From Chloroflexota bacterium (GTDB lineage: Bacteria; Chloroflexota; Anaerolineae; J102): a DNA stretch of 64,000 bases. The notes beneath the pieces were generated by a model, which saw only the letters and a program-made list of their open reading frames with translations, made no database searches and was not told the DNA's origin. The stretch is taken from positions 3,526 to 67,525 of the forward strand of contig JAYRVO010000170.1 of NCBI GenBank assembly GCA_041918515.1. The letters are read 5' to 3'. Within the stretch, counting starts at the first letter, position 1, and every line of letters begins with the position of its first letter. Shown here piece after piece: positions 2,237 through 63,464 of this stretch. The translations under genes and the position numbers were made by a program.

Positions 2237-3028
2237 CTAAAGGGTTCCCGAACTGTTAGCTTCCTCGCCCCCCACCACCCCCTCGATCAAAATATCCCCA
2301 AACGGCGTCGCCTGCTCCACCCGCACCTGCCGGCGCTTGAGCAGCTCCAACACCGCCAGCAGACTGACGATGATCTCTACGCGGGACGTGGCCTGACCCA
2401 GAAACTGCCGGAAGTGCACAGCCCTATCCGCCTTGAGCCACTTTTGCAACGCCGCCATCTTGTCCTGCACCGTGATCTGGTGTGGTTCGATGTCGGCCAC
2501 CGGCGTCGGCGGCGCTTCGTAGTCCCGCAACACCTCGAACACGGCCAACCATAGGGTCTGCACGGCCATCCCCGCGGGGTCGAGCCGTTTCTCCAACTTC
2601 GGCGGCGGCGCCAGGCGCACGTAGCCGCGTTGCCCGCTGGCTTCCAGCGTGTGCAGATGTTCGGCCTTCTCTTTGAACAGCTTGTACTCGCGCAACTGTC
2701 GCGCCAGCGCCTCGGCGGGATCCTGTTCCTCTTCTTCGCTCGCTTCGTCGGCTGGCCGCGGCAACAATGCCAGCGATTTGATGTACAACAGCCGCGCCGC
2801 CATCACCAGAAAATCGGCGATGCCATCCGGCCGGCGCTCCTCCAGGGTGGACAGATACGCCAGGTAGCCGCCCGTCACTTGGGTCAAGCTGACGGCGGTG
2901 ATGGGCAACTCCTCCGTCTCGATCAGATGGAGCAGGAGGTCGAGCGGGCCTTCGAAGCGCTCGTCTTCGCCGACATCCAGATGCAGGACGTAGTTGTCGG
3001 CGGGGTGTATCTGCAAGGGGAGGGGCAT
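2237..3028 (-). CDS. scpA: segregation and condensation protein A
   Basis: The kleisin N-terminus PLDLLLHLIETEELPITAVSLTQVT is diagnostic of ScpA. The gene's ATG overlaps the upstream gene's stop as TGACATG. Confidence 0.8.
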   Translation of the reverse strand: MPLPLQIHPADNYVLHLDVGEDERFEGPLDLLLHLIETEELPITAVSLTQVTGGYLAYLSTLEERRPDGIADFLVMAARLLYIKSLALLPRPADEASEEEEQDPAEALARQLREYKLFKEKAEHLHTLEASGQRGYVRLAPPPKLEKRLDPAGMAVQTLWLAVFEVLRDYEAPPTPVADIEPHQITVQDKMAALQKWLKADRAVHFRQFLGQATSRVEIIVSLLAVLELLKRRQVRVEQATPFGDILIEGVVGGEEANSSGTL

Positions 3029-3029
3029 G

Positions 3030-7594: not shown

Positions 7595-9355
7595 ATGCTG
7601 AAATCCATGCAGTGCGGAAACCTGCGCAAGAGCCATGTCGGGCAACAAGTGACCCTGGGCGGTTGGGTTCATCGCCGCCGGGATCATGGTGGACTCATTT
7701 TCTTCGATCTCCGTGATCGCTCGGGCTTGGTCCAGGTCGTCGTCGGCGCCGACGCCGCTTCGGAAGCCCACCGCGCTGCGGCAGAAATTCGCAGCGAATA
7801 CGTCGTGCAAGTCCACGGCGTTGTCGAACTGCGCCCCGAAGGTCTGATCAACCCCAATCTGGACACAGGCGAGATCGAGATCAACGCTCAGAGGGTCACG
7901 ATTCTCAACCCGGCCCTCCCCACCCCCTTCCCCATCAACGAGGAAGTGGAGGTCAGCGACACCGTGCGGCTGAAGTATCGCTATCTCGATCTGCGTCGCC
8001 AGCGCATGCAGCGCAACCTCATGTTGCGACACCGCATCAATAGCTTCATCCGCAACTATCTCGATCAGAACGACTTTCTAGAGATCGAGACGCCCATCTT
8101 GCTCAAGAGCACACCCGAGGGCGCGCGGGACTTCATCGTCCCCAGCCGCGTGCAACCGGGCAAATTCTATGCCCTGCCGCAGTCGCCCCAGCAGATGAAG
8201 CAATTGCTCATGATCGCCGGCTTCGAGCGTTACTTCCAGATCGCCCGTTGCTTCCGCGACGAAGACTTGCGCGCCGACCGCCAGCTGGAATTCACGCAGC
8301 TCGACCTGGAGATGTCTTTCGTCGAAAGCCAGGACATCCGTGACCTGATCGAAAATCTCATGACTGAGCTTTTCCGCGCGGTCAGCGGCAAAACCATCCA
8401 GCAAAGCCCCTTCCCGGTGCTGACTTATGCCGACGCCATGGCCCGCTACGGCTCTGACAAACCCGATCTGCGCTTTGGCCTCGCCTTTGTCGATCTCACC
8501 GACCTGCTCGCGGCGAGCGGCTTCGGTGTCTTCGCCAACGCCGCCGCTGCAGGCGGCGAAATCAAGGCCATCTGCATCCCCGGCTGCGCCGGCTATTCGC
8601 GCAAACAGATCGACGAATTGACCGAGGAAGCTCAGCGCAAAGGCGCCAAAGGCCTTGTCACGATCAAAGTAGAAGGCGACCAGCTGCACTCGACCATCGC
8701 CAAGTTCCTGACCCCCGTCGAGCTTGATGGCATCCGGGCGCGCTGCCAGGCCCAAGCGGGCGACCTCATCCTCATCGTCGCCGACGCCCCCGCGGTCGTG
8801 GCGGAGGCATTGGGGAGCCTGAGGCTCTTGCTGGGCTACCGCCTGGGCTTGGCCGATCCCAACGTCCTCGCTTGCGCCTGGGTGATTGATTTCCCGCTGT
8901 TGGAGTGGAACGCCGAGGAGAAGCGGTGGGAGGCCAAGCACCATCCTTTCACCAGCGCCCGCGACACCGACTGGCCCCTATTGGACACTGACCCTGGCGC
9001 GGCCCTGGCCAAGGCCTATGACCTCGTCTGCAACGGCATGGAGATCGGCGGCGGCAGCATCAGAATCCACGACCAGGAACAGCAGGCGAAGATGTTCGCC
9101 ACCTTGGGCATCTCGCTGGAAGAGGCGCAGGCCCAATTTGGCCACATGCTCGAAGCCTTCCAATATGGCGCGCCTCCCCACGGCGGCATTGCCCTCGGGT
9201 TGGATCGCATCACCGCCATCCTGTCCGATGAATCCAGCATCCGCGAAGTGATCGCCTTCCCCAAGACAGCCTCGGCCACCGACCTGCTGTTGAACAGCCC
9301 CAGCCCGGTGTCGCCGCGGCAGTTGGCGGAGTTGCATATTGGGGTGATTAGTTGA
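7595..9355 (+). CDS. aspS: aspartyl-tRNA synthetase
   Basis: N-terminal [49 protein letters not shown], the class II motifs ([24 protein letters not shown]) and a GAD insertion domain are all present. GGAG sits 10 nt before the ATG at 7595. Confidence 0.92.
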
Positions 9356-9399
9356 TTGGAGATTGGAGATTGGCGAGGCTCAATCTCCAATCTCCAATC
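9354..9399 (+). terminator. perfect 19-bp-stem hairpin built from GATTGGA/TCCAATC heptamer repeats, immediately after the aspS stop
   Basis: GATTGGAGATTGGAGATTG (9354-9372) pairs perfectly with CAATCTCCAATCTCCAATC (9381-9399) around an 8-nt loop. No U-tract follows it. It belongs to the CAAT-heptamer element family. Confidence 0.5.
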
Positions 9400-9589
9400 T
9401 CTAATGTCCAGAAAATCGAAAAATTGGTGTGTTGGCTGTGACAAAAGTCGCAGCGCGGGGCGGGGGAAAAGGCTAAAATGGGCGATCACTAGGGATGGTT
9501 GCTTCGGAGGCGATGACTTCCTTTCCTCTGTGGGTTGCCTCCGGCAGCCAGGCACTGCGGATCATAATCGTCGATGGCGGAACGCTGGC

Positions 9590-9990
9590 CAGGTTGAGGC
9601 GCAGCCGCACAGGACGCAACCGAGACCCCCACCCGCACCCCCACGCCCACCATCACCCCCACGCACACTCGCACGCCCACTCTGACGCCGACCCCAACTC
9701 GCACGCCCACCCGCACCCCCACCCTGACGCCGACCGACACGCCCACACCAACACCGACCGACACGCCCACACCAACACCGACCGACACGCCCACCCCGAT
9801 ACCGACCGACACACCCACACCAACGCCCACCGACACTGCTTCACCGACGTCGACCGACACATCCACACCTACCCCCACCGATACTGCTACACCGACGCCA
9901 ACCAACACACCCACCAACACCGCCACCCCGACCGATACGCCTACCCCCACCAGCACGCCGCGCATCTTCCGTCATTGGCTGCCGCTACTG
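9590..9990. repeat. imperfect ~27-bp-period tandem repeats (ccgaccgacacgcccacaccaacac); coding frame ambiguous
   Basis: One + frame reads as a Thr/Pro linker ([14 protein letters not shown]...) but has no start codon after an upstream TGA. A second + frame is His-rich (track ORF 9495..10010). The minus frame is a (GV)n ORF. Confidence 0.7.
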
Positions 9991-23550: not shown

Positions 23551-23870
23551 TGGTGCTCTCCTTTGGCTCTATAGGTCTTGAATATGCGTCAGCCCTTGTA
23601 CGGATAAGTTACGCACTGGGCGTTGGAACCCAATTATATGAATGAACACTCATATGATATGAGCACTCCAATGTGTTGTCAAGTACTGTTCACCTGTGCT
23701 TTTTATCTCACGCAAAGGCGCAAAGACGCCAAGAAAACATAAAAACTTTGCGTCTTAGCGGCTTTGCGTGAGCCAATTTTGGGGCAACGTGAACTTCTAC
23801 GAGCGTGGGCCGATGCGCTCATCCCGTGGTATAATAGGTTCATCACCCATCAAGATAGGGGAGGTGATCC

Positions 23871-26567
23871 ATGACGCTACCCATGTTGACCACCAAGCTA
23901 TTTCCTCCGCCCGTGCGCGGGGGACTGGTGCCGCGCCCGCGCCTGATCGAGCGGCTGGACGCGGGGTTACGCGGCGGATGCAAGCTCACCCTTGTCTCCG
24001 CCCCGGCCGGCTACGGCAAAACCACCATGGTTGTCGAGTGGGGATTGAAGATTGCATCTCGTCCCCATCCGCAACCCGGAATTCGCAATCCGCAATTCGC
24101 CTGGCTCTCTCTCGACGAAGGCGACAACGACCCCATGCGGTTCGCCACCTACCTCCTGGCTGCGCTACAGCAGATTGATCCGGCCATCGGCCAGGTCGCC
24201 CAGGTGATGTTGCAAACCCCGCGACCGTCTCCGCCGGAAGCGTTGCTCACGAGCCTGATCAACGACATTGTCGCTGCGCCCACGCCCTTCGTCCTCGTCC
24301 TCGATGATTATCAGTTGATCCAGGCGCCGCCTGTGCATCAGTTCCTGGCTTTCCTCCTGGAGCACGCGCCGCCGCAGATGCACGTGGTCATCACCACCCG
24401 CGAAGACCCACCCCTGCCGCTCGCCCGTTTGCGCGCCCGCGGCCAGATCACCGACATCCGACAGAGCGACCTCAAGTTCACCGAGGAAGAAACAGCCAGC
24501 TTTCTGCGGCAGATGATGCGGCTCGACCTCTCACCCGCCGATGTGACGACCATCCAACAACGCAGCGAGGGCTGGATCGCGGGATTGCAATTGGCGGCGC
24601 ACTCCATGCAACACAGCGCAGATGCCCGGCAGTTCGTGGCCGACTTTGCGGGCAACGATCGCTACATTCTGGATTATCTGGTCGAGGAGGTCTTCCAGCG
24701 GCAGCCGCCCGATGTGCAGGATTTCCTGCTCAAGACATCCATCCTCGACCGGATCACGGCGGGCTTGTGCGACGCGGTGTTGGGTCAGGGAGCCGGGGCG
24801 CAGGCCAGCCAAACCATCCTGGAGAGACTCGACCGCGCTAATCTCTTCATCGTGCGGCTGGATGAGACGCGGCAGTGGTATCGCTATCACCACCTCTTCC
24901 GCGACCTTTTACGTCTCCAGCGCCACATCCAGTGCGGTGGGGTGGACGCGGCCGATCTTCATCGCCGGGCCGGGCGTTGGTTCGAGCAGAACGGCTTCTT
25001 GGATGAGGCGCTGGATCATTTCCTGGCGGCGGAGGACTGGAACGAAGTCGAGCGCCTCATCGGGCTGGCAGCTGCGGATGCCATCAACCATGGCCAGTTC
25101 GCCACTTTGAATCGTTGGCTCGCCGCTCTGCCAGAGGAGCGGCTACGCGGCAGTTCCGAGTTGGCCGGCCTCAAGGGCTGGGCGGTGCTGTCGCTGGGAC
25201 AGTTCGCCGCGGCTGAAACCTGGACGAACCGGGCCAACGATCTCCTCCCCCCCAACGCACCCCCGTTCCATCAGGCGTTCGTGCTGTGCCTGCAAATCTA
25301 TCTCGCCCACATCCGCTCCGACATCCCCCAGGTCATCGCCCTGGCCCAACGCGCCCTGACTCTGTTGGAGGCGGAGGACCCGCACGGCTTGCGGGGCGCA
25401 GCTCTGGCCAACCTGGCCTCGGCGCAGATGATCATGGGCGATATCGCCGCGGCGACGCGCACGCTGTGCGAGGAGATTCGCGTGGGACAAGAGCGCGGTC
25501 ACGCCATCAGCGCGGTCAGCGCCCTGAGCACCCTGGCCGAGCTTGAGCATCGCCAGGGCCGGGCGCGGGAGGCGTTGGCGCTCGATCAGCAGGCGCTTGA
25601 TCTGGCAGTGGATGGACGGGGCCATCCTTTGCCGTTGGCGGGACACGCCCATATTGGGCTTGGTCTGATCTATTTCGATCTCGATGATCTGGCGCACGCG
25701 CGCGAACACCTGGTTCGGGGCCTCGATCTGGGCCGGCAGCTTGGTCCGACATCGGGCGCCATGCAGGGCGCATTCACGTTGGCGCGCATTCAGCAGCTGG
25801 CGGGAGAAACAGAAGTGGCGCGAGCGACCGCGGCGGCCGCGCGGCAGGCGGCGGCCGCGCTCAACCTGCCGCTGGCCGAGACACTGGCCGCCGGGTGGGA
25901 GGCAGATTTTCGTCTGAAGTTGGGCGATGTCGCCGCGGCCGCGCGCTGGGCAGAGGCCGCACATCTGACACCGGCGGATATGCCGACCTTCGCGCGCGAG
26001 GCCGAGTACATCACCTATGCTCGCGTGCTGCTGGCGCAGGATCGGCCAGCCGAGGCGCGGGTGCTACTCGCCAACTTCGAGGGCTATGCGCGTCACGCCG
26101 GCCTCGATGGTACGCTCATCACTGTCTGTGTTCTGCAAGCTTTGGTCGAGCAGGCGCTCGGCCAGAAGGCGCCGGCATTGGCGCGCCTGGGTGAGGCAGT
26201 GCGCCTGGCCGCGGGCGAAGGGTATCGTCGCGCTTTTCTGGATGGCGGCGCGGCGGTGGCCGCTCTCCTGCCCGGCGTGCGTCACCTGGCTCCGGCGTTC
26301 GTGGATGATCTGCGCGGTCGTCTGCGCCCGGAATCCAGTCGCAGCAGGTTCGTCACATTAGCGCAGCCCCTCATCGAGCCGCTCAGCGAGCGCGAGTTGG
26401 AGGTGCTACGACTGGTGGCCGAGGGGCTATCGAACGCCGAGATCGCCGATAAGTTGTTCATCAGCGTGGGCACGGTGAAGACGCATGTGCACAATATCCT
26501 GGGCAAGCTTGAGGCGGAGGGGCGGCCGCGAGCGATGGTGCGGGCGAGGGAGTTGGGGTTGATCTGA
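23871..26567 (+). CDS. MalT-like STAND ATPase with a LuxR-family HTH (transcriptional regulator)
   Basis: P-loop SAPAGYGKTT, a WLSLDEGDN motif as in MalT, TPR-like helical repeats and a C-terminal LuxR HTH (LSERELEVLRLVAEGLSNAEIADKLFISVGTVKTHV). A strong RBS GGAGGTGA and a TATAAT lie upstream. Confidence 0.85.
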   Translation: MTLPMLTTKLFPPPVRGGLVPRPRLIERLDAGLRGGCKLTLVSAPAGYGKTTMVVEWGLKIASRPHPQPGIRNPQFAWLSLDEGDNDPMRFATYLLAALQQIDPAIGQVAQVMLQTPRPSPPEALLTSLINDIVAAPTPFVLVLDDYQLIQAPPVHQFLAFLLEHAPPQMHVVITTREDPPLPLARLRARGQITDIRQSDLKFTEEETASFLRQMMRLDLSPADVTTIQQRSEGWIAGLQLAAHSMQHSADARQFVADFAGNDRYILDYLVEEVFQRQPPDVQDFLLKTSILDRITAGLCDAVLGQGAGAQASQTILERLDRANLFIVRLDETRQWYRYHHLFRDLLRLQRHIQCGGVDAADLHRRAGRWFEQNGFLDEALDHFLAAEDWNEVERLIGLAAADAINHGQFATLNRWLAALPEERLRGSSELAGLKGWAVLSLGQFAAAETWTNRANDLLPPNAPPFHQAFVLCLQIYLAHIRSDIPQVIALAQRALTLLEAEDPHGLRGAALANLASAQMIMGDIAAATRTLCEEIRVGQERGHAISAVSALSTLAELEHRQGRAREALALDQQALDLAVDGRGHPLPLAGHAHIGLGLIYFDLDDLAHAREHLVRGLDLGRQLGPTSGAMQGAFTLARIQQLAGETEVARATAAAARQAAAALNLPLAETLAAGWEADFRLKLGDVAAAARWAEAAHLTPADMPTFAREAEYITYARVLLAQDRPAEARVLLANFEGYARHAGLDGTLITVCVLQALVEQALGQKAPALARLGEAVRLAAGEGYRRAFLDGGAAVAALLPGVRHLAPAFVDDLRGRLRPESSRSRFVTLAQPLIEPLSERELEVLRLVAEGLSNAEIADKLFISVGTVKTHVHNILGKLEAEGRPRAMVRARELGLI
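24063..24095. repeat. partial CAAT-heptamer element (gaattcgcaatccgcaattcgcc) embedded in-frame inside the MalT-like regulator gene
   Basis: It shares GCAATTCGCAAT with the intergenic elements at 62252 and 63409. It encodes the extra residues ..PGIRNPQFA.. between the P-loop and the WLSLDEGDN motif. Confidence 0.7.
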
Positions 26568-31300: not shown

Positions 31301-34300
31301 CACCACGTATCGCGTCGATCTGTACGCCAACACCACGTGCGATCGTTCTTTTTATGGCGAGGGCGAAAGCGTGTTGGGCCAAATCGCTGTCACCACCAAC
31401 GCCCAGGGCAATGGCTATTTCAGCACGCTGTTGCCAACTCAGCCCAACGGTGTGGCCCTGACCGCCACCGCGACACAGAATCCGGGCACAGGGTTGGCGA
31501 ACACCTCGGAATTCAGCCAGTGCGCCGTCGTTGGCCCCAACAACGACACTTGGGCCAATGCCTATCCTGTCTCGCTAACGCCCGTCGCCGTGGGCGAATC
31601 GTCCGGTTCGGCCAGCCAATATATTTCAGCCTCGGGCCAAACCCGCTGGTTCAAGTTCGCCGCCGCACCCAACAGCACCGTCATCATTGACCTTTCCAGC
31701 CTGCCGGCCAACTACGACCTGACCCTCTTCCGCGACATCGCCAAAACCTATGACCGCTTGCGCCAGCCGCAAGACGTCAACGAACTGGCCTTGCTGTCGG
31801 CTGAATTCGCGCCGGAGATGTTCACGCCGGAGATGTTCACACCGGAGATGTTTACGCCGGAGATGTTCACCCCCGAAATGTTCACGCCGGAGATGTTCAC
31901 ACCGGAGATGTTTACGCCGGAGATGTTCACCCCCGAGATGTTTACGCCGGAGATGTTCACCCCCGAGATGTTTACACCGGAGATGTTCACCCCCGAAATG
32001 TTCACGCCAGAGATGTTCACCCCGGAGATGTTTACGCCGGAGATGTTCACCCCCGAAATGTTCACGCCGGAGATGTTCACCCCCGAAATGTTCACGCCGG
32101 ACCGGCGCTACTATGCCGGGGCGTTGGCGCAGAGCGCGGTGGCTGTCAGTGCTTTCGAGGGCACAGCGCCGGAGTCAGCGGTGGCCAACACCTGGAACGA
32201 AAGCGGCGAGTTCTATGTCAACGTGACCGGCCGCAATGGCGCTTATGATCCCACGGCGCCGTTTGACCTGCGGGTGACGGTGCTGGGGGCCGAGTGCAAC
32301 GGCCTCACCGTGCTTGACGCGGCGCCCAACCTGGGCATCTTGCCGAATGGCGGCTATGCCACGCTCTTCCTCGTCGATTCGCAGCGCATGGGCGTTGATT
32401 ACAGCGCCATTGCCTCGCAGTTGAACACCCTGGCGGGACACCCGGCAGTCAATGGCGTCATTGTAGATGTATCGCAATTTAGCGAGATCGCCGCCGCCAA
32501 CGCTCAGGCCGACCAGCTTTATCAGTGCGTCTATGCCAAGAACATCGTCGCCTACGGCATCAAGGCAGTTGTCGATGCCTATCGCGCCGCCAACCCCAGC
32601 TTGCGCTACATCGTGCCGGTTGGCAACGACGATGTGATCCCGTTCTTCCGCTACCCCGATCAGGCGCTGCTGGCGAACGAGAGCGGCTATGTGCCGCCCG
32701 TGCTCGAGACCACCGCTTCGCAGGCTTCGCTGCGCCACGGCTACGGTCTGTCGCAAGACACCTACGGGGCGGCCATCGAGCTACAGCGTCGCAACACCCG
32801 CTTGCCGTTGCCCGAGCTGGCAGTGGGCCGCCTGGTGGAAACTCCAGCCGAAATCAACGCCACCATCGCCGCCTTTTTGGCGAGCAATGGCACGCTGCCC
32901 ACTCCCTCCCGTGCATTGGTCACCGGCTACGATTTCCTGTCCGACGCCGCCACGGCCATCCAGCAGGATTTGACGGCGGGGCTCGGCGTGGGGGGCTCGG
33001 TCACCCCGCTGATCGATGCCGCCACCACGGCCCCGGTCAACGGCTGGACGGCCGATGATCTGCGCACTGCCTTGCTCGAAAGCGGTCGCCACGACCTGAT
33101 TTACTTGGGTGGCCACTTCAGCTCGTTCAGCGCCCTGGCTGCCGACAACAAAACTCGCGTGCTGGCGTCTGAATTGCTGGCCTCCAGCGTGGACATGCGC
33201 AACGCCATCATCTTCAGCAACGGCTGCCACTCCGGCTACAATCTGGTGGCCGGCCACGCCGTGCCCAACGTCTCGATCGAGCCTGATTGGGCGCAAGTGT
33301 TTGCCGCCAAGGGCGCCATCCTGATCGCCGGTACGGGCTATCAGTACGGCGATACGGATTTCACCGAGTATGGCGAGCGCCTGTACTTCCAGTTCAGCCG
33401 TGAGCTGAGGCGGGGCAGTGGCGTTGTTTCGGTGGGTGAGGCGCTGGTGCGCGCCAAGCAGGTCTACCTCAGCGAAACCGCCGAGATGCGGCCTATCCAC
33501 GAGAAGACATTGCTCACCGCCACGCTTTTCGGCCTGCCGATGACCACCGTCGATATGCCGGGCGAGCGCTACAATCCAGCTTCCGGCGTGACGCTGGTCT
33601 CGCTCACGCCGGTGGCAACCAATCCCGGCGCCATGCTGGGCCTGAAGACCTATGATTTGACGGTGACCCCGAATCTGGTGCGGGTGGACAAGCCCCTGCA
33701 GAACATCGTCGATAACAGCCTGACCAACACCGTCTATTACCAGGTTGCCAATTCCGACCGCCTGGTGATTAACCCCGGCGAGCCAGTCTTGCCCCTCGAC
33801 CTGCACAAGCTACGGGCCACTGATACCCTTGTGCGCGGCCTGGGCTTCCGCGGCGGCAGCTACACCGACGTGCTCAATGTGATCCCGCTCACCGGCGCCG
33901 CCACCACCGAACTGCGTGGCATCCACACACCCTTCATCAGCAGTGTCTTCTATCCGGTGACGCCGTGGGATGTCAACTACTTCGATACGCTGGCCAATTC
34001 GGTGGCCGGCGGGTTCATCGGTGTAGGCGCAATTCCGGCGCAATTCCGCTCCAACGGGCCGAGCAGTGTGGATGGAACCATGCGCGTGTACAACAGCATG
34101 AACTTCCGCCTGTTCTACAGCAGCAACACCGCCGCCTACGAGAACCAGACCTACGACATCACCAACATCCCGGCGCTGGCCGGGCCTCCGGCCATCAGCA
34201 AGGTGACGTCCGCAGCCAACGGCGGCGTGCAGGTTGCCTTCCGCGTCACGGTCACCGGCGATCCTTCCGCCGGAATCCAGGCGGTTTGGGTCACCTACAC

Positions 34301-54291: not shown

Positions 54292-54546
54292 ATGACGCAC
54301 ATCAAGACCGCAGTTTCTCTGGATCAAGTTCTCTTCAAACAAGCCGAAGTTCTTGCTGAAGAGATGCACATCTCGCGCAGCCGTTTGTTTGTGCTTGCCC
54401 TCGAGGATTTCATTCGCCATTACGAAAATCGGCAACTTCTCGCACAGATCGATCGCGCTTATGCAGACACCCCGGACGCTGACGAGCAAAAGCAAGTGAG
54501 TGGGATGAGGCGTTTGCATCGCCAAGCTGTGGAGGGTGGATGGTGA
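54292..54546 (+). CDS. type II antitoxin (ribbon-helix-helix, MazE/CopG-like) of the downstream MazF-family toxin
   Basis: An 84-aa ORF whose stop TGA overlaps the toxin's ATG (ATGGTGA). The N-terminus has an RHH-like pattern. Confidence 0.55.
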   Translation: MTHIKTAVSLDQVLFKQAEVLAEEMHISRSRLFVLALEDFIRHYENRQLLAQIDRAYADTPDADEQKQVSGMRRLHRQAVEGGW

Positions 54547-54896
54547 TCAGCCAGGGCGACGTATACTGGATCGATCTGGGCGAACCACTGGGATCCGCCC
54601 CAGGTTACTTGCACCCGCACGTCGTCATCCAAAACAATGTCTTTAATCGTAGCCGCATCAATACAGTTTTGGTGTGTGCGCTGACTTCCAACCTGAAACG
54701 CGCCGGTGCCCCCGGCAACGTCCTGCTGGAGCCGGGCGAAGCCAATCTCCCCAAACAAAGCGTCGTGATGGTTTCGCAGATGTTCACGGTCGATAAAAGC
54801 CAGCTTGGCGAGTACGTCGGCAAGCTATCACCGAAGCGGGTCCGTCAGGTTTTGGATGGCATTCACCTGTTGGTCGAGCCGCGAGATACTGACTGA
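54540..54896 (+). CDS. MazF/PemK-family endoribonuclease toxin
   Basis: N-terminal ISQGDVYWIDLGEPLGSAPGYLHPHVVIQNNVFN is the PemK/MazF-fold signature. Confidence 0.75.
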   Translation: MVISQGDVYWIDLGEPLGSAPGYLHPHVVIQNNVFNRSRINTVLVCALTSNLKRAGAPGNVLLEPGEANLPKQSVVMVSQMFTVDKSQLGEYVGKLSPKRVRQVLDGIHLLVEPRDTD

Positions 54897-56121: not shown

Positions 56122-56343
56122 ATGTTGCACCGCCATCTCACCCATCAGCAGTTCACCCTGGCCGCCATCGACGACATCATCGCCCGCGGCAAGCGGCAGG
56201 ATTGGGCGGCGTTGCGCCAAGCGGTGTTGGCGGATCAAGCCCTGCTGGAAAAAGTGCTGCGCGTCTGCCAAGCACACGCGGTCGATCCCTACGCTCAGCG
56301 CTATCATTTCTGGAAGCAGTATGCCGAACGACACCTGGCCTGA
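56122..56343 (+). CDS. small hypothetical protein, possible cognate partner of the downstream nucleotidyltransferase
   Basis: A 73-aa ORF whose 3' end overlaps the next gene by 23 nt. No family call. Confidence 0.35.
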   Translation: MLHRHLTHQQFTLAAIDDIIARGKRQDWAALRQAVLADQALLEKVLRVCQAHAVDPYAQRYHFWKQYAERHLA

Positions 56344-57010
56344 TTGGGAGCAAGTTCTGGCCGCGGCTGCACATCTTCAGCGCATCTTGCCAGGAGCGGT
56401 TCTCGTCGGCGGAAGCGCCGCGGCAGTGTACGCTGCTCATCGCCTGTCCACCGACGCCGACCATGTGTTGACCGATCTCCAGCAACATTTCGATCAGACG
56501 CTGACCGAATTGGAGGCGGTGGCGGGCTGGAAGACTGCTCGCGTCAGGCGTCCAGTGCAGATTCTCGGCAGCCTGGATGGCATCGAAACGGGAGTGAGGC
56601 AACTGATCCGGGATGAGCCGCTCGAAACCGTTCAAATCGAGTACATGGGGCAGGTGCTCACGTTGCCGACAGAAGCGGAAATGCTGCGGATCAAGGGCGT
56701 GCTCATCTTGCGGCGAAATGCGACCCGCGACTATCTCGATTTCGTCGCTCTAGCCGATCACTTGGGTGCTGAGGGAATGATCGAGGCCCTGCGGCCATTT
56801 GACCTTCTTTACCCGCAGCCCAATGACGAATCGGCATTGCAGCAATTGCAGATCCAGCTTGCCAATCCACTGCCCTACGACATCGAAGAGCTAAACCTGG
56901 CCGAATACAAAAACCTGGATCCGCGCTGGTGCAATTGGCAGACCGTCAAGGCCGTGTGCGCCGAATGCGCAACTCTGATCTTTGACTACATTGTTGGTCT
57001 GGATGAGTGA
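56321..57010 (+). CDS. nucleotidyltransferase of the AbiEii/AbiGii toxin family (DUF1814-like)
   Basis: VLVGGSAAAVYAAHRLSTDADHVL fits the GG(T/S)A...HR.S.D.D core of AbiEii-family NTases. Confidence 0.5.
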   Translation: MPNDTWPDWEQVLAAAAHLQRILPGAVLVGGSAAAVYAAHRLSTDADHVLTDLQQHFDQTLTELEAVAGWKTARVRRPVQILGSLDGIETGVRQLIRDEPLETVQIEYMGQVLTLPTEAEMLRIKGVLILRRNATRDYLDFVALADHLGAEGMIEALRPFDLLYPQPNDESALQQLQIQLANPLPYDIEELNLAEYKNLDPRWCNWQTVKAVCAECATLIFDYIVGLDE

Positions 57011-57738: not shown

Positions 57739-58264
57739 TTAGAACCGGCTGAGATCATCGACCAGGCGCACATAGAGCTGCCATTGCCGGCCATAGGGAT
57801 CGCTGGCCAACAAAGCTTCTTCTTCGGTGAGTTGCCCCAGAAAGCCGTAGCCCTGTTGGACGCCCTGGAGGATCACTTCTGGGCTTTCGGCCGCTCCCCG
57901 CCGGATCAGGCGCTGCAAATCAGGCCATTCGTAATGAGTCGGCGGTGGCGTAGTAGTCGGCGGACGGGATGGCGAAGGTAATGCCATGATGAGCCTGACC
58001 ATGCAAACAGCCGATCAAGTCCAGCACGAACGCATCCGGCTTTGCATCGACGGTCGTAGTGAAATCCAGATCGAGGCTGAAACGCCCCTGCCCACCCAAG
58101 ATCAGTTTGCGGATCGCTGTGCCACCCTTGAAAGCCAATTGCGCCAGCAAGCCCTCGTCGGCCAGGATGCGCAGCACATAGGTCAGCACGATTTCCCGTT
58201 CAGCAATGTCCAGATCCACGCCAGCGTCCGCTGCATACCATTGCACCCAGCGTTTCTCGATCAT
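57739..58264 (-). pseudogene. AbiEii-family nucleotidyltransferase, apparently frameshifted or truncated
   Basis: The N-terminal 114-aa ORF (57920..58264) carries FKGGTAIRKLILGGQGRFSLDLDF, the AbiEii signature. Translation continues in a second frame (57739..58002). The 175-codon total is short for this family. Confidence 0.45.
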
Positions 58265-59085
58265 CAGTGCACCTCGATATCACCAAACAGCTCCCGTTGT
58301 GGCACGTTGTCCACTACTTGCCAGGTCGCGTTGAATTTTCCTCCGCGCCCCCAGCGGCCGGGTTGGCCAAGATAGCATGTGCTCCTCCCGATCCCATCCA
58401 GCAGCTGCCTGGATGCCTCGTCGTCTATTGGCAGACCAAGCAATTCGGCCAGATAGCCCAGACGCTGAACCAGGGATTGGGAGCGGAAGCGTAGCGCGTA
58501 GTCGGCCAGGCGATGCCAATCCAGCCGACCCCGCCCATGCCAAAGCATTGCCGCCACCTCCGAGATGTCACCGGCATACTGTGGCCGGTCGAGGCAGTCG
58601 AGAAGCGTTTTTTCAGGCTCGGCCATCTGTACACGACTGCCGTAAGCGTCTACCTCGGTTGCACCGAAGAACTTGTGCGGAGGTTGAGTCACCAAGCGGT
58701 ACTCCTTGTCACGCACGATCAGCGGTCCCTGGCGCCGTGCCGTTGTGGCAATGAAAACGGTTGCGGCTGCCTGTGTTGACAAGCCGTGGAAGAAGGCCGC
58801 CGTTGCATAGGAGAAGTAGTAGGGAGAGACCAGCACACTGCCGATGAAAAGGGGATTGGTGTCGGGGAACGCATAATCCCCTCGTTCGGCAGGAACCAAC
58901 TCGTACTTGCCCGCTACGATCGGCGCCAGCCAACGGCCACGCGCGAGCCGGGAGAGCACCTGGCGCGCCTGGTCGTAAGAGACGTTGAGGATCGCCATGG
59001 CTTCTTGAATGGTGACGACGGGCTGCTTCTCCCACTCCAGTTGAAGGATGAGTCGCGATTCTAGCGCAGAAAGAGGGCGTGCCAT
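58264..59085 (-). CDS. AbiEi-family antitoxin/transcriptional regulator (type IV TA system)
   Basis: A wHTH N-terminus (LSALESRLILQLEWEKQPVVTIQEAMAILNVSYDQARQVLSRLARGRW) plus a C-terminal AbiEi domain, immediately upstream of an AbiEii gene. Confidence 0.65.
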   Translation of the reverse strand: MARPLSALESRLILQLEWEKQPVVTIQEAMAILNVSYDQARQVLSRLARGRWLAPIVAGKYELVPAERGDYAFPDTNPLFIGSVLVSPYYFSYATAAFFHGLSTQAAATVFIATTARRQGPLIVRDKEYRLVTQPPHKFFGATEVDAYGSRVQMAEPEKTLLDCLDRPQYAGDISEVAAMLWHGRGRLDWHRLADYALRFRSQSLVQRLGYLAELLGLPIDDEASRQLLDGIGRSTCYLGQPGRWGRGGKFNATWQVVDNVPQRELFGDIEVH

Positions 59086-59222: not shown

Positions 59223-59251
59223 TTGACTTCACAAAGACACTCTGCTATGCT
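59223..59251 (+). promoter_or_regulatory. sigma70-like promoter TTGACT-17-TATGCT for the downstream hypothetical gene
   Basis: TTGACT at 59223-59228 and TATGCT at 59246-59251. Confidence 0.4.
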
Positions 59252-59320
59252 TGGTGGTAGGAGGTATGACCACATACCACCAAGCACCGAATCGATGCTT
59301 CACCTGTGATTTCAACGGAC

Positions 59321-61315
59321 ATGAACGCGCCATTGCCTCAGCGAGTGCTTTATTACGGAAAGGATGCGCCTTTACCCGATCAGACGCCTCTGGTCGCGGG
59401 GCCGCTACGTTTGGTCTACGAAGCCGGGGATTTGCGCTACATCCGCTGGGGCGACCGGGAAATCCTGCGGCGGATTTATGTGGCCGTGCGAGATCACAAT
59501 TGGGGCACGGCGTTGCCGGTTTTGTCGAACGTCCAGATCGAGCAGGGCCAGGATTGGTTCCGCATCGCCTACGACGTGGACAACCGGCTGGGTGACATCG
59601 ATTTCTGCTGGCATGGCGAAATCCACGGCGAGGCCGATGGCGCCATCCGCTTCAGCATGGACGGCGAGGCGCACTCGACCTTTCGCCGCAACCGCATCGG
59701 CTTCTGCCTGCTGCATCCCGCCGAATGCGCGGGGGCGCCAGCCCGCATCGAGCATGTGAATGGCACAGTGGACGAGGCGCCCTTGCCGCGGCTGATCGCT
59801 CCGCAACTTGTCGTGGCCGGCGAGATCAAGCCTGTGGCCCCGTTCCAGGAAATGGCGGGGCTGGCGCACGAGGTGGGGCTGGGCCGGTGGGTCGAGTTCC
59901 GTTTCGCCGGCGACATCTTCGAGATGGAAGACCAGCGCAATTGGACCGACGCCTCGTTCAAAACTTATTGCACACCCCTGCGCCTGCCCTTTCCCCAAGA
60001 AATCCGGGCGGGGACGAAAGTCAGCCAGGCGGTGACGCTGCGTCTGCGCGCCGAAGCACAGCCTGCAGCCGGCGCATCTCTCTCGTCCGCCCGCTCTGGG
60101 CTATGGCTCGACCTGGCGACCGCGAAACCGGCGGTGGATTTGCCCCGGCTCGGCCTGGGCGTCGCCAGCCACGGGCAGCCGTTGCACGAACGCGAGATCG
60201 AGCGGCTGCGGGCGCTGCACCTTGCCCATTTGCGCGTGGATGTGCGGCTGTCCGAGCCAGACTGGGAAGTCCGATTGCAGCAGGCCGCCCTCGAAGCGCG
60301 GGCATTGGGGGCGCAACTCGAGACCGCCATTTTCCTCTCCGATGACGCCGAAAACGAGCTGGAACGATTGGGGCAGGCGCTGGCCCGGATTCAGCCGCCG
60401 GTGGCGAGCTGGCTGATCTTCCACCAAAACGAAAAATCCACCGGCGAGCGTTGGATTGACCTGGCTCGTCCCGTGCTGCTGGCCTACGACCCCACCGCCC
60501 GCATCGGTTCGGGCACGAACGTGTTTTTCACCGAACTCAACCGGGGTCGCCCGCCCGCCCACGCTCTCGATCTGGTGTGCTACTCGATCAACCCGCAGGT
60601 GCACGCTTTCGACAATCTGTCGCTGATCGAGACGCTGGCCGCGCAGGCGGCCACGATCGAGAGCGCCCGCGCTTTCAGCGACGACAAGCCTTTGGCGGTG
60701 ACGCCCATCACTTTGCGGATGCGCTTCAATCCCAACGCCACCGGCCCGGAACCGGCGCCCGCGGCGGGCGAATTGCCCCCGCAGGTGGACGAGCGGCAGA
60801 TGTCGTTGTTCGGGGCGGGGTGGACGCTGGGCAGCATCAAATATCTGGCCGAGGCCGGGACGCAAAGTCTGACCTATTACGAAACCACCGGCTGGCGGGG
60901 CGTGATGGAAACCGAGGCCGGGTCGCCGTTGCCCGACCGTTTCCCCTCACTGCCCGGCGCTGTCTTCCCGCTCTATCACGTCCTGGCCGATGTGGGCGAG
61001 TTCGCCGGCGGGCAGGTGTTGCCGCTGGCATCGAATTGCCCGATGGTCGTGGAAGGGCTGGCGTTGCGCAAAGCCGGTCGCCAACGGCTACTCGTCGCCA
61101 ATCTCAGCGCCGAGACTGTGCAGATCAACATCGCCGGCAGCGGCGCAACCGGTGGCAACGTGCGCTTTTTGGACGAGACCAACGCCATCGAGGCCATGAC
61201 TCAGCCTGAACGCTTCCGCCAGCAGCCCGGCGAACTTTTGCCTGCCCCCGACGACGTCCTCCGCCTCTCCCTCCGCCCCTTCGCCGTCGCGTGCGTTGAT
61301 TTGAGGGATAAGTAG
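59321..61315 (+). CDS. large hypothetical protein (665 aa), possibly a TIM-barrel/glycosidase-like fold
   Basis: A long ORF with high-GC codon bias and no confident motif. The track ORF starts at GTG 59306. The first in-frame ATG is at 59321. Confidence 0.5.
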   Translation: MNAPLPQRVLYYGKDAPLPDQTPLVAGPLRLVYEAGDLRYIRWGDREILRRIYVAVRDHNWGTALPVLSNVQIEQGQDWFRIAYDVDNRLGDIDFCWHGEIHGEADGAIRFSMDGEAHSTFRRNRIGFCLLHPAECAGAPARIEHVNGTVDEAPLPRLIAPQLVVAGEIKPVAPFQEMAGLAHEVGLGRWVEFRFAGDIFEMEDQRNWTDASFKTYCTPLRLPFPQEIRAGTKVSQAVTLRLRAEAQPAAGASLSSARSGLWLDLATAKPAVDLPRLGLGVASHGQPLHEREIERLRALHLAHLRVDVRLSEPDWEVRLQQAALEARALGAQLETAIFLSDDAENELERLGQALARIQPPVASWLIFHQNEKSTGERWIDLARPVLLAYDPTARIGSGTNVFFTELNRGRPPAHALDLVCYSINPQVHAFDNLSLIETLAAQAATIESARAFSDDKPLAVTPITLRMRFNPNATGPEPAPAAGELPPQVDERQMSLFGAGWTLGSIKYLAEAGTQSLTYYETTGWRGVMETEAGSPLPDRFPSLPGAVFPLYHVLADVGEFAGGQVLPLASNCPMVVEGLALRKAGRQRLLVANLSAETVQINIAGSGATGGNVRFLDETNAIEAMTQPERFRQQPGELLPAPDDVLRLSLRPFAVACVDLRDK

Positions 61316-61339
61316 GCAAGTAGGCAAGTAGACAAGTAG
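61307..61339. repeat. left junction repeat GATAAGTAGGCAAGTAGGCAAGTAGACAAGTAG (octamer GTAGGCAA x2-3); the 12-mer AAGTAGACAAGT recurs at 62225-62236
   Basis: The exact 12-bp direct repeat, extended to 15 bp as GATAAGTAG[G/A]CAAGT, flanks the low-GC segment 61340-62224. Confidence 0.8.
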
Positions 61340-61384
61340 TTGGCACGCCCCTTGCCCAATGAGTCAAACAAAAGGTCGGTAATT

Positions 61385-62059
61385 ATGAACAAGATAACAG
61401 AATTGTTTCAGGGACGCTCAAAAACTTATATAATCATCTTGATGGTGTTAGCAATAGTTGTAATAGTCACCATGTACTGGTTGATAAAAAGTCCAAGTTT
61501 CGAGTCTTTTCTTTCCTTGTTGGTTATTGTTGCAATTGCTGCCGTGTTGAGATCTCTAAAAGATGCTTCAGATATTTTTGCCGTGTCCGAAAAAGATATT
61601 GAAGTTGCTCGTGTACGTGTTGAGCAAAATCCAGATAAAGCAAAACCCGCTTGGGATTTAGCAACGGTAAAATTAGAAGCCTATTTATCAGCAAATCTAA
61701 AGCAAATAAATTGGATTTTCGGTTTAAGTGTCATTGTAATGATTGTTGGGTTTGTATTTTTAGCAATCGCCGTCTTTCTAACTTTACAAAATCCAGAATT
61801 TATTACTCCTGTAATTGTTGCTGGTGTTGGCGGTGCGCTTACTGAATTTATCGGAGCAACATTTCTTGTTTTATATCGTTCAGTAGTTGAACATTCCACC
61901 AACTTCATTAAGTCTTTAGATAAAACAAGTTCAGTCGGTGTTGCTATGCAAATATTGGACAACATATCTGCTGATAAAGATGAAATGGTTCGAGAGAAAA
62001 TTATTGACGCCAAGATTGAAGTAGCAAAACTTCTACTTTCTAACCTTTCAGAAAAATAA
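61385..62059 (+). CDS. orphan low-GC 4-TM membrane protein (horizontally acquired)
   Basis: The ORF is about 36% GC in a 65% GC genome. It has two TM hairpins separated by a ~60-aa soluble segment and ends in an amphipathic helical tail. No family call. Confidence 0.6.
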   Translation: MNKITELFQGRSKTYIIILMVLAIVVIVTMYWLIKSPSFESFLSLLVIVAIAAVLRSLKDASDIFAVSEKDIEVARVRVEQNPDKAKPAWDLATVKLEAYLSANLKQINWIFGLSVIVMIVGFVFLAIAVFLTLQNPEFITPVIVAGVGGALTEFIGATFLVLYRSVVEHSTNFIKSLDKTSSVGVAMQILDNISADKDEMVREKIIDAKIEVAKLLLSNLSEK

Positions 62060-62251
62060 TGTTCTCTTTTGCAGGCTTAGAGTCTTATAATCAAAAGCAT
62101 GCCAACAAAGCGTGCACCCGATGTGTGGGATTCTGCGGCATTTTCAAGCATTTTTCTGGCTTTGGGTTTTTTCTGCTCCCGAACAGCGTCCACGCCCACT
62201 CACACGCAGGTAACGCAAACCGATAAGTAGACAAGTGGCAGGTCGCAGACC

Positions 62252-62315
62252 CTATTTCGCAATTCGCAATTCCCATTTCGCAATTCCCAATCTCCAATAA
62301 CCAATCCCCAATCCC
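62252..62315. repeat. CAAT-heptamer tandem element ending 3 nt before the mevalonate kinase start codon
   Basis: It reads tatttcg|caattcg|caattcc|catttcg|caattcc|caatctc|caataac|caatccc|caatccc. It is closely related to copies at 63409-63464 and 9354-9405. Confidence 0.9.
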
Positions 62316-62318
62316 CCC

Positions 62319-63335
62319 ATGCCCACCCTCATCACCTCTTCCCCCGCCAAAATTATCCTTTGCGGCGACCACGGTGTGAATCGCCAGCAGCCGGCGCTGT
62401 GCACGGCCGTGGACATGCGCACCTTCTGCCGGGTCAGCACACGGTCGGACGAGCACTTCAGCTTCCGGTCGGGCGACCGCTTCGAGGAATGCACGCGGGA
62501 GCAACTGCTGGCTTTCAAAGCGCGCGTCGATGGCCTGCGCGAGGCCAAAGCCCTGGATGAGATTCGCGAGCAGGCGCGGGACTTTTTCGCCACCACGCGC
62601 TACGTATTGTCCTTCGTCGTGGACAAAGTGGGCGGGCCGGGGCTGGACATCGAATGGCGCTCGGATGTGCCGGTCAGTTCGGGGCTTGGCTCCGGCGCGG
62701 CGGCTTCGACATCGATGGCGTTGGCGGCTTTCACCCTGGCCGGACACGAGCCAACGCCGGACGAAGTGATCTGGGCGGCCTGGCAGGGCGACAACATCGC
62801 CCACGGCGGCGTGGCCTCCAGCCTGGACAGCAGCACCATCGTCAAGGGCGGGACGGTGCGTTACACGGTCAAGGATGGCGCCATCCCGCTCGACCTTTCG
62901 GCTTCGCTGCCGTTGGTCGTGGGCCAGTCGTTCGTCGCCGACCGCAGCACGGCCAAGCTCAACACCATCGTGCGCAAGTTCGTCGAGGCCCATCCCCCCA
63001 AGATGCATCTTTTCTGGGACATGGGCTGGCTGGTCGAGAACATCCAAGCCAGCATGGCCGCGGGCGATTTGCCCACACTCGGCCATCTCTTCAATCTACA
63101 TGAGCTGATCCAGGAAAAAATCGGCGCCGTCGCCCCCGAAAACGAGATGCAAATCGAGGCCGCCATCGGCGCTGGAGCGCTGGGGGCCAAAGTCTCGGGC
63201 GCGGGCGGTGGCGGCATCATCATCGCTATCGTCGAGCCAGACAAGCAGCCCGCCGTGATCGCCGCCATCGAAGCTGTCCACGGTCGCGCCTTCGCCGTGA
63301 GCACCGGCGCCCCCGGCACGCGCGTTGAGTCGTGA
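62319..63335 (+). CDS. mvk: GHMP kinase, most likely mevalonate kinase
   Basis: N-terminal PAKIILCGDHGV (compare the PGKVILFGEHAV motif), the GHMP ATP-binding motif PVSSGLGSGAAASTSMA and C-terminal GAKVSGAGGGG. Confidence 0.65.
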   Translation: MPTLITSSPAKIILCGDHGVNRQQPALCTAVDMRTFCRVSTRSDEHFSFRSGDRFEECTREQLLAFKARVDGLREAKALDEIREQARDFFATTRYVLSFVVDKVGGPGLDIEWRSDVPVSSGLGSGAAASTSMALAAFTLAGHEPTPDEVIWAAWQGDNIAHGGVASSLDSSTIVKGGTVRYTVKDGAIPLDLSASLPLVVGQSFVADRSTAKLNTIVRKFVEAHPPKMHLFWDMGWLVENIQASMAAGDLPTLGHLFNLHELIQEKIGAVAPENEMQIEAAIGAGALGAKVSGAGGGGIIIAIVEPDKQPAVIAAIEAVHGRAFAVSTGAPGTRVES

Positions 63336-63408
63336 CAAGCTGACGCCGGTCGAGTACGACCGGTGGTGACGCCGGTCGAGTAAGACCGGTGGTGACAAGG
63401 TGACGCCG

Positions 63409-63464
63409 TTATTTCGCAATTCGCAATTCGCAATCTCCAATAACCAATCTCTAATCTCTACTCC
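63409..63464. repeat. CAAT-heptamer tandem element immediately upstream of the next start codon
   Basis: It reads ttatttcg|caattcg|caattcg|caatctc|caataac|caatctc|taatctc|tactccc. The ATG lies at 63471. Confidence 0.9.

Follow-up and report, generated by a model that had tools for sequence, protein, structure and literature searches.

A low-GC island in a Chloroflexota chromosome as a probable lone integron gene cassette encoding a PF20712 membrane protein

The stretch of DNA analyzed here, referred to as the window, comprises 64,000 nucleotides (64 kb) of a contig from an uncultured Chloroflexota bacterium (JAYRVO010000170.1, assembly GCA_041918515.1) and contains, between a gene for a relative of D-apionate lactonase and a mevalonate kinase gene, a short island of low GC content that encodes a membrane protein. 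It is very probable that this island is a single integron gene cassette, consisting of one open reading frame (ORF) and one attC site, that was inserted outside an integron into a Chloroflexota (Caldilineaceae-like) chromosome by recombination between attC and a genomic attG site. A preliminary description of the same DNA was right to see here a mobile cassette with a single gene, acquired horizontally, whose product is a membrane protein; the more specific class, that of integron gene cassettes carrying an attC site, had not been named in it. The cassette proper occupies positions 61340..62222 of the + strand (883 nt, 38.4% GC), runs from TTGGCA... to ...AAACCG, and was delimited by nucleotide homology, the same two ends being found in arrays. 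Because the window contains one attC match and no detected IntI integrase, the element is a lone cassette, or SALIN in the terminology of Loot et al. (bioRxiv 10.1101/2022.09.11.507474).

The ends of the unit are defined by comparison with three independent metagenomic contexts, in which blastn alignments place the beginning of DNA homology at 61337-61339 and its end at 62222-62225. Nucleotide identity of the unit is 81% with contigs L001 and L089, 89% with L210 and 92-96% with L212 (L numbers denote retrieved contigs), and the ends are the same in all of them. The unit opens with TTGGCA and closes with ...GCAGGTAACGCAAACCG, and its composition is that of an ORF plus an attC site of ~130 nt. 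These last ~130 nt recur in the array contigs directly upstream of the unit and after neighboring genes. In the 8.8-kb contig L089, five co-oriented attC copies bound successive ORFs, a type III restriction-modification (R-M) pair among them, and in L210 a gene 92% identical to the window cargo is flanked by attC sites on both sides. The start of the window cassette, (G)TTGGCAC, matches the reverse complement of its own R'' box at 7 of 8 positions. Among 51 cassettes with an attC end on either side, the first 8 nt agree with the reverse complement of the cassette's own R'' at 7.53 of 8 positions vs 5.76 of 8 for the downstream R', and such complementarity to the own R'' would be the footprint expected when circular cassettes are cut at G|TT. 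The divergence of the window cassette from the other copies found is 4-19% in every case. Compared with it, L212 and L213 show an insertion or rearrangement of ~197 nt near the 5' end of the gene (L212:2385-2582), with the ORF shortened to 179 aa.

The second line of evidence is the attC site itself, which lies at 62100..62222 (+) and is cut off at the crossover. It consists of R'' (TGCCAAC, 62100-62106), L'' (62110-62129), a variable center, L' (62195-62216), the spacer AAACC and, of R', the G at 62222. Array copies of this attC start with (R)YYYAAC-AAAGCGTGCACC and finish with GCAGGTAACGCAAACC-G|TTRRS, which are the inverse core sites R'' (RYYYAAC) and R' (GTTRRRY). In the window, R' is kept only to the crossover G, and its TTRRRY half is replaced by the host sequence ATAAGT; this loss is as expected once a cassette has recombined with a partner other than attC. 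Bottom-strand folds of array copies (L001) have the R box, unpaired spacer and L stem, with an extrahelical T and G/C on the 3' arm. Across 73 aligned copies the canonical attC fold pairs 95.2% of cells, slid controls giving 21-37%; in the L stem, pairing reaches 99.4%, and four pairs there carry compensatory changes. A covariance model built from these 73 metagenomic copies, and thus specific to one attC family, finds a sole match in the window (62098-62231, 103.2 bits, E 5.5e-25); with filters off, it detects no further attC site above 10.5 bits anywhere in the 64 kb. At least 120 metagenome contigs contain the 19-mer GCAGGTAACGCAAACCGTT of this family, with as many as seven copies in a single contig. 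The ~130-nt family is very homogeneous (83% mean column identity in the 73 copies) and extends over at least 120 contigs of environmental origin, from numerous samples (L089-L209), arrays with up to 7 sites being exemplified by L097:3121-10767, L109:1286-4763 and L116:526-8099. It comprises two central-region subtypes, whose L stems differ by compensatory changes (GTGTGGG/CCCACAC vs GCTGGGG/CCCCAGC).

Integrases accompany these arrays. Full-length IntI is encoded in L120 (457 bits), L102 (465) and L212 (447), all above the TIGR02249 cutoff of 265, and in the three contigs it is divergently oriented and adjoins sites of this attC family; in L212, the cassettes from which IntI diverges include the cargo gene of the window. 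In L003-L006, a 79% homologue of the cargo is immediately preceded by what is left of an intI with an internal deletion and is followed by a gene for AIPR, an abortive-infection-like protein. Integrons are known in Chloroflexi (PMC4889954). In the integron-bearing contigs, intI and the adjoining chromosome have 52-64% GC and the cassettes 38-44% (L102:3106-5348, L120:67-2623, L212:2-2040, L003:243-4695). Since array cassettes are thus AT-rich relative to their hosts, the low GC content of the island need not imply a low-GC donor. Among the sister cassettes are a 4.5-kb one with a type III R-M pair, Mod and Res (L089:2766-6946), and others with AIPR (L003:5972-7684) and an R-M methyltransferase (L102:1265-2878); at least 5 of 133 cassette ORFs match PADLOC R-M methyltransferase models, counting top families only. 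Contig L216 (1-9126) carries an array of at least 12 sites belonging to a second, distinct attC family (...YTAACAAAGCCTTGCAGCTGACGG...GCTGAAGGCCAGCGTTAGAT), in which the cassette at 2521-3126 codes for a 47%-identical PF20712 homologue.

The composition of the island and the repeats around it are best read together with the insertion site. In 200-nt windows the GC content is 0.65-0.68 up to ~61300, 0.33-0.39 over 61300-62100, and again 0.65 by 62300, in agreement with the previously described fall from about 65% to about 36% (the low part has 35-38%). The ORF has 35.1% GC and the two flanks have 65.2% and 62.1%, and the island is the deepest low-GC segment of the window and the only one below 0.44 in 300-nt windows. 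An exact 12-mer, AAGTAGACAAGT, is present at 61326-61337 and 62225-62236, and a 15-mer, GATAAGTAG[G/A]CAAGT, matches at 14 of 15 positions between 61307-61321 and 62222-62236, so that the repeats and coordinates given in the preliminary description are right. As a statistic the 12-mer is only modestly unusual (4 matches with up to 2 mismatches vs 1.2 expected, 4 being reached in 5 of 100 shuffles), and the weight of the pair comes from the comparison with cassettes and arrays. Its left copy lies inside an octamer array, AAGTAGGC x3.8 (TRF: period 8, 3.8 copies, 95% matches), and the left repeat region overlaps the stop codon TAG of the upstream gene (61313-61315), which is in the first octamer unit; both features had been noted before and hold.

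What does not hold is the view that these repeats bound the element, as the unit ends obtained from three independent cassette arrays are displaced by 2 nt from both copies of the repeat. Of the native octamer array, the left half spans 61307..61339 and reads G ATAAGTAG GCAAGTAG GCAAGTAG ACAAGTAG, its G at 61339 being the attG-like target crossover G, and the right half spans 62223..62238, reads ATAAGTAG ACAAGTGG, and is the host sequence 3' of the crossover G. The left junction is ...ACAAGTAG|TTGGCAC (...AAGTAG|TTGGCA) and the right one ...CAAACCG|ATAAGTAGACAAGTGG (...AAACCG|ATAAGT), and therefore the genomic partner was cut at G|AT. This target fits the attG consensus 5'-GWT-3' with cleavage after the G (bioRxiv 10.1101/2022.09.11.507474), and the CRGM motif at +6 to +9 is matched at 3 of 4 positions (TAGA). 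In silico removal of 61340-62222 joins ATAAGTAG GCAAGTAG GCAAGTAG ACAAGTAG | ATAAGTAG ACAAGTGG, which TRF reports as one in-phase period-8 array of 5.5 copies with 91% matches, and precise removal of the cassette leaves no duplicated bases. Because an in-phase array is regained on excision, the flanking direct repeats are the parts of a split native tandem array, with no duplication made by insertion. Tandem arrays with 7-8-nt units also occur elsewhere in the window (9354-9410, 23710-23734, 24067-24100, 62243-62316 and 63413-63460), with units that include GATTGGA, CAATCTC, ACGCAAAG, ATCCGCA, TTCGCAA and CAATCCC. Those at 62243-62316 and 63413-63460 are located in the intergenic spacers on either side of the mevalonate kinase gene, and units of the ATGACGAA type are present in the equivalent spacer of the relative L062.

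Both flanking genes are host genes outside the element. The upstream one (59306..61315, +, 65% GC) encodes a 669-aa relative of D-apionate lactonase that matches NCBIfam NF049900 with E 8.7e-98 over 14-609, under the curated cutoff; it has 247 relatives in genome contigs, the best being from Caldilineaceae/Chloroflexota metagenome-assembled genomes (MAGs) with 61-68% identity. The downstream gene (62319..63335, +) encodes mevalonate kinase (TIGR00549, E 3e-43, with GHMP kinase Pfam domains). In Caldilineaceae/Chloroflexota MAGs the two genes lie 17-25 nt apart (L009, L011, L057) or 120 nt apart (L062), and since they are adjacent in relatives, the 1-kb gap of the window is the derived state. 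An empty site in relatives had been proposed as a check on the insertion: the adjacency of the flanking genes in L009, L011 and L057 favors insertion on the ground of synteny. It had also been suggested that the upstream protein and the membrane protein form a sensor-effector pair, an idea at odds with the resemblance of the former to D-apionate lactonase and with its position next to mevalonate kinase in relatives that lack the cassette. In another Chloroflexota relative, L010, a 411-aa ORF of host-like GC content (2254-3638), by eye a Gfo/Idh/MocA-type oxidoreductase, lies between the lactonase-like and mevalonate kinase genes, and this spacer has therefore gained genes more than once.

Several observations weigh against insertion of a lone cassette by attC x attG recombination. 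The window, which extends 1.8 kb downstream of the cassette, contains no IntI-like sequence detectable by tblastn with IntI1 and the intI fragment of L003 as probes; the catalyst is thus one that we infer. The relatives that lack the cassette share only 61-68% identity in the lactonase-like protein, and their spacers differ in sequence; what they provide is synteny and no exact empty octamer site. Rfam has no match in 61000-62600. Finally, the attC site of the window is degraded: its folding energy of -12.8 kcal/mol is worse than that of shuffles, array copies reaching -24 to -31, and it scores 103 bits with the covariance model vs 116-153 for the attC sites flanking the genes of the closest homologues. 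Its membership in the family hence rests partly on similarity in primary sequence.

Among the other origins considered, the one that fares best, although highly improbable, is that an integron once resided at this locus and lost its integrase, attI and other cassettes by deletion, leaving a single cassette behind. CALIN and SALIN elements can indeed come from integrase loss (PMC4889954), and the 79% homologue in L003-L006 has an intI remnant beside it. At the window locus, however, the left junction is host DNA right up to the crossover G, with no attI-like or intI-derived sequence, and tblastn finds no intI fragment in the window. Moreover, the cassette sits in a spacer of ~120 nt in which its precise removal brings the octamer array back in phase, and the host genes are 17-25 nt apart in relatives. 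Still less credible is a single-gene mobile cassette, transposon-like or otherwise unrelated to integrons, whose insertion duplicated a target of 12-15 bp; this is the model implicit in the preliminary description. The exact 12-mer and the 14/15 15-mer flanking a low-GC segment are what this model would rest on, but the conserved mobile unit stops 2 nt from each repeat copy, the left side is longer by two or three octamer units, and the repeats keep phase with each other as a single tandem array. The unit contains no transposase, no second ORF and no terminal inverted repeats that could be found, and its ends, G|TT and ...G|, are those of the integron crossover. Target-site duplication as such was ruled out by the offset between the repeats and the ends taken from three independent arrays, together with the in-phase octamer array produced by excision. 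A metagenome assembly chimera, in which a foreign low-GC fragment was stitched into a high-GC contig, is suggested by the extreme contrast in composition and by the probable metagenomic origin of the window (every relative retrieved is a MAG), yet it has a very low probability, given that host sequence in syntenic gene order lies on both sides, that the junctions fall exactly at integron crossover points, that the shared repeats (12-15 nt) are below typical assembly k-mers and that the cassette diverges by 4-19% from every other copy found.

With a lone cassette inserted by attC x attG recombination as the favored origin, the likely course of events would be as follows. A circular cassette would have been recombined by an integron integrase acting in trans, encoded elsewhere in the genome or on a transient element, with the folded bottom strand of attC recombining with the double-stranded genomic G|AT at the boundary of an octamer unit. 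This chemistry would create no target duplication. Insertion would cost R' its TTRRRY half, and mismatches would later have built up in the L stem. Because of the replaced R' half and these mismatches, precise re-excision of the window cassette is probably inefficient; an excised circular cassette would carry the junction ...GCAAACCG|TTGGCAC. As regards expression, a scan of the + strand found no promoter-like site from the lactonase-like gene to the cassette start codon, the only + strand promoter-like match inside the cassette being within the ORF (61547-61576). Terminator-like sites are absent from the stretch that separates the lactonase-like gene from the mevalonate kinase gene. A promoter-like site is located 5' of the lactonase-like gene (59223-59251). 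As the three co-oriented genes are undivided by promoter-like or terminator-like sites, transcripts of the cassette gene would probably arise by read-through from the promoter of the lactonase-like gene.

The cargo ORF (61385..62059, +) encodes 224 aa plus a stop and is preceded, ~10 nt 5' of its ATG, by an AAGG Shine-Dalgarno-like motif. Its product is an all-helical protein with four transmembrane (TM) segments that belongs to Pfam PF20712 (CyanoTRADDas_TM), matched by residues 104-170 with 57.7 bits against a cutoff of 24.3 (E 1.2e-15). The AlphaFold2 (AF2) model (pLDDT 83.2) consists of five long helices, two TM hairpins among them; the two hairpins and the helical character announced by the preliminary description are thereby confirmed, while the length is 224 aa instead of 225. 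The same description regarded the protein as an orphan of no recognisable family, a view overturned by the PF20712 match and by an exhaustive profile search that retrieved PF20712-type relatives represented by 2,671 clusters at 50% identity, 552 of them at E<=1e-30. In a set of 5.8 billion proteins the cargo has 43 homologues, the closest of which are 75-93% identical, and all 144 sampled relatives (144/144) match PF20712. The family shares a conserved core of ~190 residues at the C-terminus, preceded by variable N-terminal regions, and this core is made up of a juxtamembrane helix (PxKAKPAWDLA..LEAY..NL.Q), the 2-TM hairpin and a helix with the motif INSVGMA.QILD. The ratio of nonsynonymous to synonymous substitution rates (dN/dS) of the cargo gene is 0.19 vs L210 and 0.12 vs L089, values that point to purifying selection. 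The array of L216 (at least 12 sites), in which the 47% homologue resides, is of a different attC family, and one-gene cassettes with PF20712 cargo are thus present in at least two attC families. The genes next to other homologues are toxin-antitoxin genes, or those for a STAND NTPase and an rve transposase. The neighbors differ in each context examined, and the homologues share no conserved partner gene. The TRADD-N domain, an association that the PF20712 model itself does not require, is absent from the most frequent Pfam matches of the 144 relatives and from 10 long relatives. In the literature searched, no paper names PF20712, and papers on TRADD-N are silent on the TM domain in their main text.

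What this protein does can be approached only through similarity and context. NCBIfam has no match for the cargo, a PDB sequence search gave no meaningful match, and the structure-based homology search proposed earlier, carried out with Foldseek against PDB and BFVD (models with pLDDT 72.8 and 83.2), produced no significant match. Regarding SLATT, one of the effector families it had been suggested to compare, the Pfam profile does not match the cargo at E<=1, a SLATT-annotated viral model matches it at E 0.65, and SLATT_1 is found in 3 of the 144 relatives below threshold (best E 0.0026, 18 bits vs 26.3). Sub-threshold matches in relatives also include Phage_holin_3_6 (15/144) and 8xMP (9/144). 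All these matches may stem from a bias in TM composition, and they are at most a hint of a membrane-perturbing hairpin. For the cargo protein itself, PADLOC has no match to a defense-system model better than E 0.37, and PHROGs has none at all. No partner for a nucleotide signal (SMODS, SLOG, TIR etc.) was found, the cassette having a single gene and neighbors that vary across the contexts examined.

Roughly an even chance is given to the cargo being a membrane protein not involved in defense (e.g., one for transport or for coping with envelope stress) or a neutral passenger without expression here. Most integron cassettes are of diverse, uncharacterised function (PMC4889954), distant homologues occur in unremarkable chromosomal contexts, such as next to groES/groEL in L214, and many relatives have N-terminal extensions that look extracellular. 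Such a role fits less well with the purifying selection seen across cassette copies and with the recurrence of the gene in variable or defense-rich regions. Alternatively, the cargo may be a membrane-acting conflict or defense protein, either a self-gated pore or depolarizer or a blocker of phage entry, a possibility to which somewhat less than even probability is assigned, a non-defense or silent role being at least as likely. In this regard, about one third of the tested cassettes of unknown function from mobile integrons gave phage resistance, and about one third of those have TM helices (bioRxiv 10.1101/2024.07.02.601719). The more specific proposal of a self-gated abortive-infection pore, holin-like or SLATT-like, that would depolarize the membrane on sensing infection is unlikely. 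Two TM hairpins with conserved juxtamembrane helices, the weak Phage_holin_3_6, 8xMP and SLATT_1 matches of relatives and the SLATT-annotated viral protein would all suit a pore, close homologues adjoin R-M, AIPR and toxin-antitoxin genes, and defense cassettes encoding TM proteins are documented (bioRxiv 10.1101/2024.07.02.601719), but every similarity is below threshold, PADLOC gives no match, and there is no partner gene that could supply a signal or an antitoxin. In its broadest form, the idea would be that stand-alone four-TM PF20712 proteins constitute a hitherto unrecognised single-gene system, carried on integrons and directed against phages or other mobile genetic elements. They would act as a self-gating SLATT-like effector without a nucleotide-signaling partner, dispersed among phyla by integrases and now and then established in a chromosome through attC x attG insertion; this is a speculative proposal and rather doubtful as a whole.

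Insertion of a cassette outside an integron is an already known kind of event, and the window resembles the experimentally produced attC x attG insertions described by Loot et al. (bioRxiv 10.1101/2022.09.11.507474) in having one ORF and one attC, away from any integrase or further att site, in the crossover after the G of a genomic 5'-GWT-3' (here G|AT) without target duplication, and in lying 3' of a co-oriented host gene, from which read-through is possible. It differs in being a natural case in an uncultured Chloroflexota, whereas those insertions were obtained in experiments with IntI1 and IntIA in E. coli and Vibrio. In addition, the target of the window lies within an array of short tandem repeats, the attC site is visibly decayed, and the CRGM motif of IntI1 hotspots is only 3/4 preserved (TAGA). 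The aadB cassette found at a secondary site of plasmid RSF1010/pRAY, cited by Loot et al. (bioRxiv 10.1101/2022.09.11.507474), is similarly a whole single cassette precisely inserted at a non-att site, where aadB is expressed from a resident promoter; that insertion concerns a plasmid and an antibiotic-resistance enzyme, and the one in the window a chromosome and a membrane protein. The source arrays, for their part, are comparable to sedentary chromosomal integrons (the Vibrio superintegron with its VCR-type attC) in their long (~130 nt) homogeneous attC sites, co-oriented promoterless ORFs and divergent intI, and in the lower GC content of their cassettes (38-44%) than of intI and the adjacent chromosome (52-64%), but the hosts of these arrays are environmental bacteria and the window copy lies outside any array.

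The cargo likewise has relatives of several degrees among known systems. It shares with PF20712, a 2-TM domain named for its association with TRADD-N in cyanobacteria, the 2-TM hairpin at residues 104-170, well above threshold; unlike the proteins that gave the domain its name, it has no TRADD-N, caspase, STAND or nucleotide-signaling partner, and it is a stand-alone protein with an extra N-terminal TM hairpin. With the SLATT 2-TM effectors, whose models miss the window protein, it has in common only a general build of helical juxtamembrane segments around a TM hairpin. The phage-resistance cassettes known as BRiCs (Kieffer et al., bioRxiv 10.1101/2024.07.02.601719) are also small cassettes encoding TM proteins, and sister cassettes of the window element code for R-M and AIPR; the likeness of BRiCs to the window cargo is one of cassette type and TM protein, and no sequence relationship to a described BRiC was found, no comparison aimed at one having been made.

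Other features of the window include two toxin-antitoxin or abortive-infection modules, next to which the membrane protein gene had been placed. AbiE and MazF/PemK are indeed present upstream, although 2.2 kb and 6.4 kb away; both are interspersed with ordinary genes and mechanistically unconnected to the cassette. In the AbiE module (57920-59085, -), AbiEi is intact (273 aa) and the AbiEii ORF is truncated, its 114 aa covering only the first 47 of 238 profile positions. The MazF/PemK toxin (54292-54896, +) has 118 aa (PF02452, E 3e-27) and is overlapped at its 5' side by an 84-aa ORF with no Pfam match, presumably the antitoxin. Two overlapping ORFs of 73 aa and 229 aa, both without a Pfam match, lie at 56122-57010 (+) between UPF0261 and histidine phosphatase genes and could be a small two-gene module. 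Several longer tandem repeats are also present. Just 3' of the mevalonate kinase gene (63341-63396), a 26-nt unit, TGACGCCGGTCGAGTAAGACCGGTGG, is repeated x2.2 with 96% identity and an inverted repeat in each unit. At 31806-32101, a 15-nt unit x19.7 (or a 30-nt unit x9.6, 91% matches) probably codes for a pentapeptide-type repeat. Positions 9625-9959 (~330 nt) contain C-rich imperfect tandem repeats of 12-48-nt units, ACCCCCACCCGC-like, and 4099-4276 a 63-nt unit x2.8.

In all, the window represents a clean natural example of a cassette leaving its integron for a minimal GWT chromosomal site, in which both junctions and the pre-insertion site can be reconstructed to the base. Cassette escape to GWT sites was shown experimentally only recently, mostly in Proteobacteria, and is met here in an uncultured Chloroflexota lineage. 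The case also illustrates that a split native tandem repeat can pass for a target-site duplication. Beyond the insertion itself, the analysis brought out a very homogeneous family of ~130-nt attC sites that is abundant in environmental metagenomes, and a large, uncharacterised family of membrane proteins, PF20712, which lies beside R-M or AIPR genes in two of the contexts examined and is thus an inexpensive and well-defined candidate for a defense or toxicity screen.

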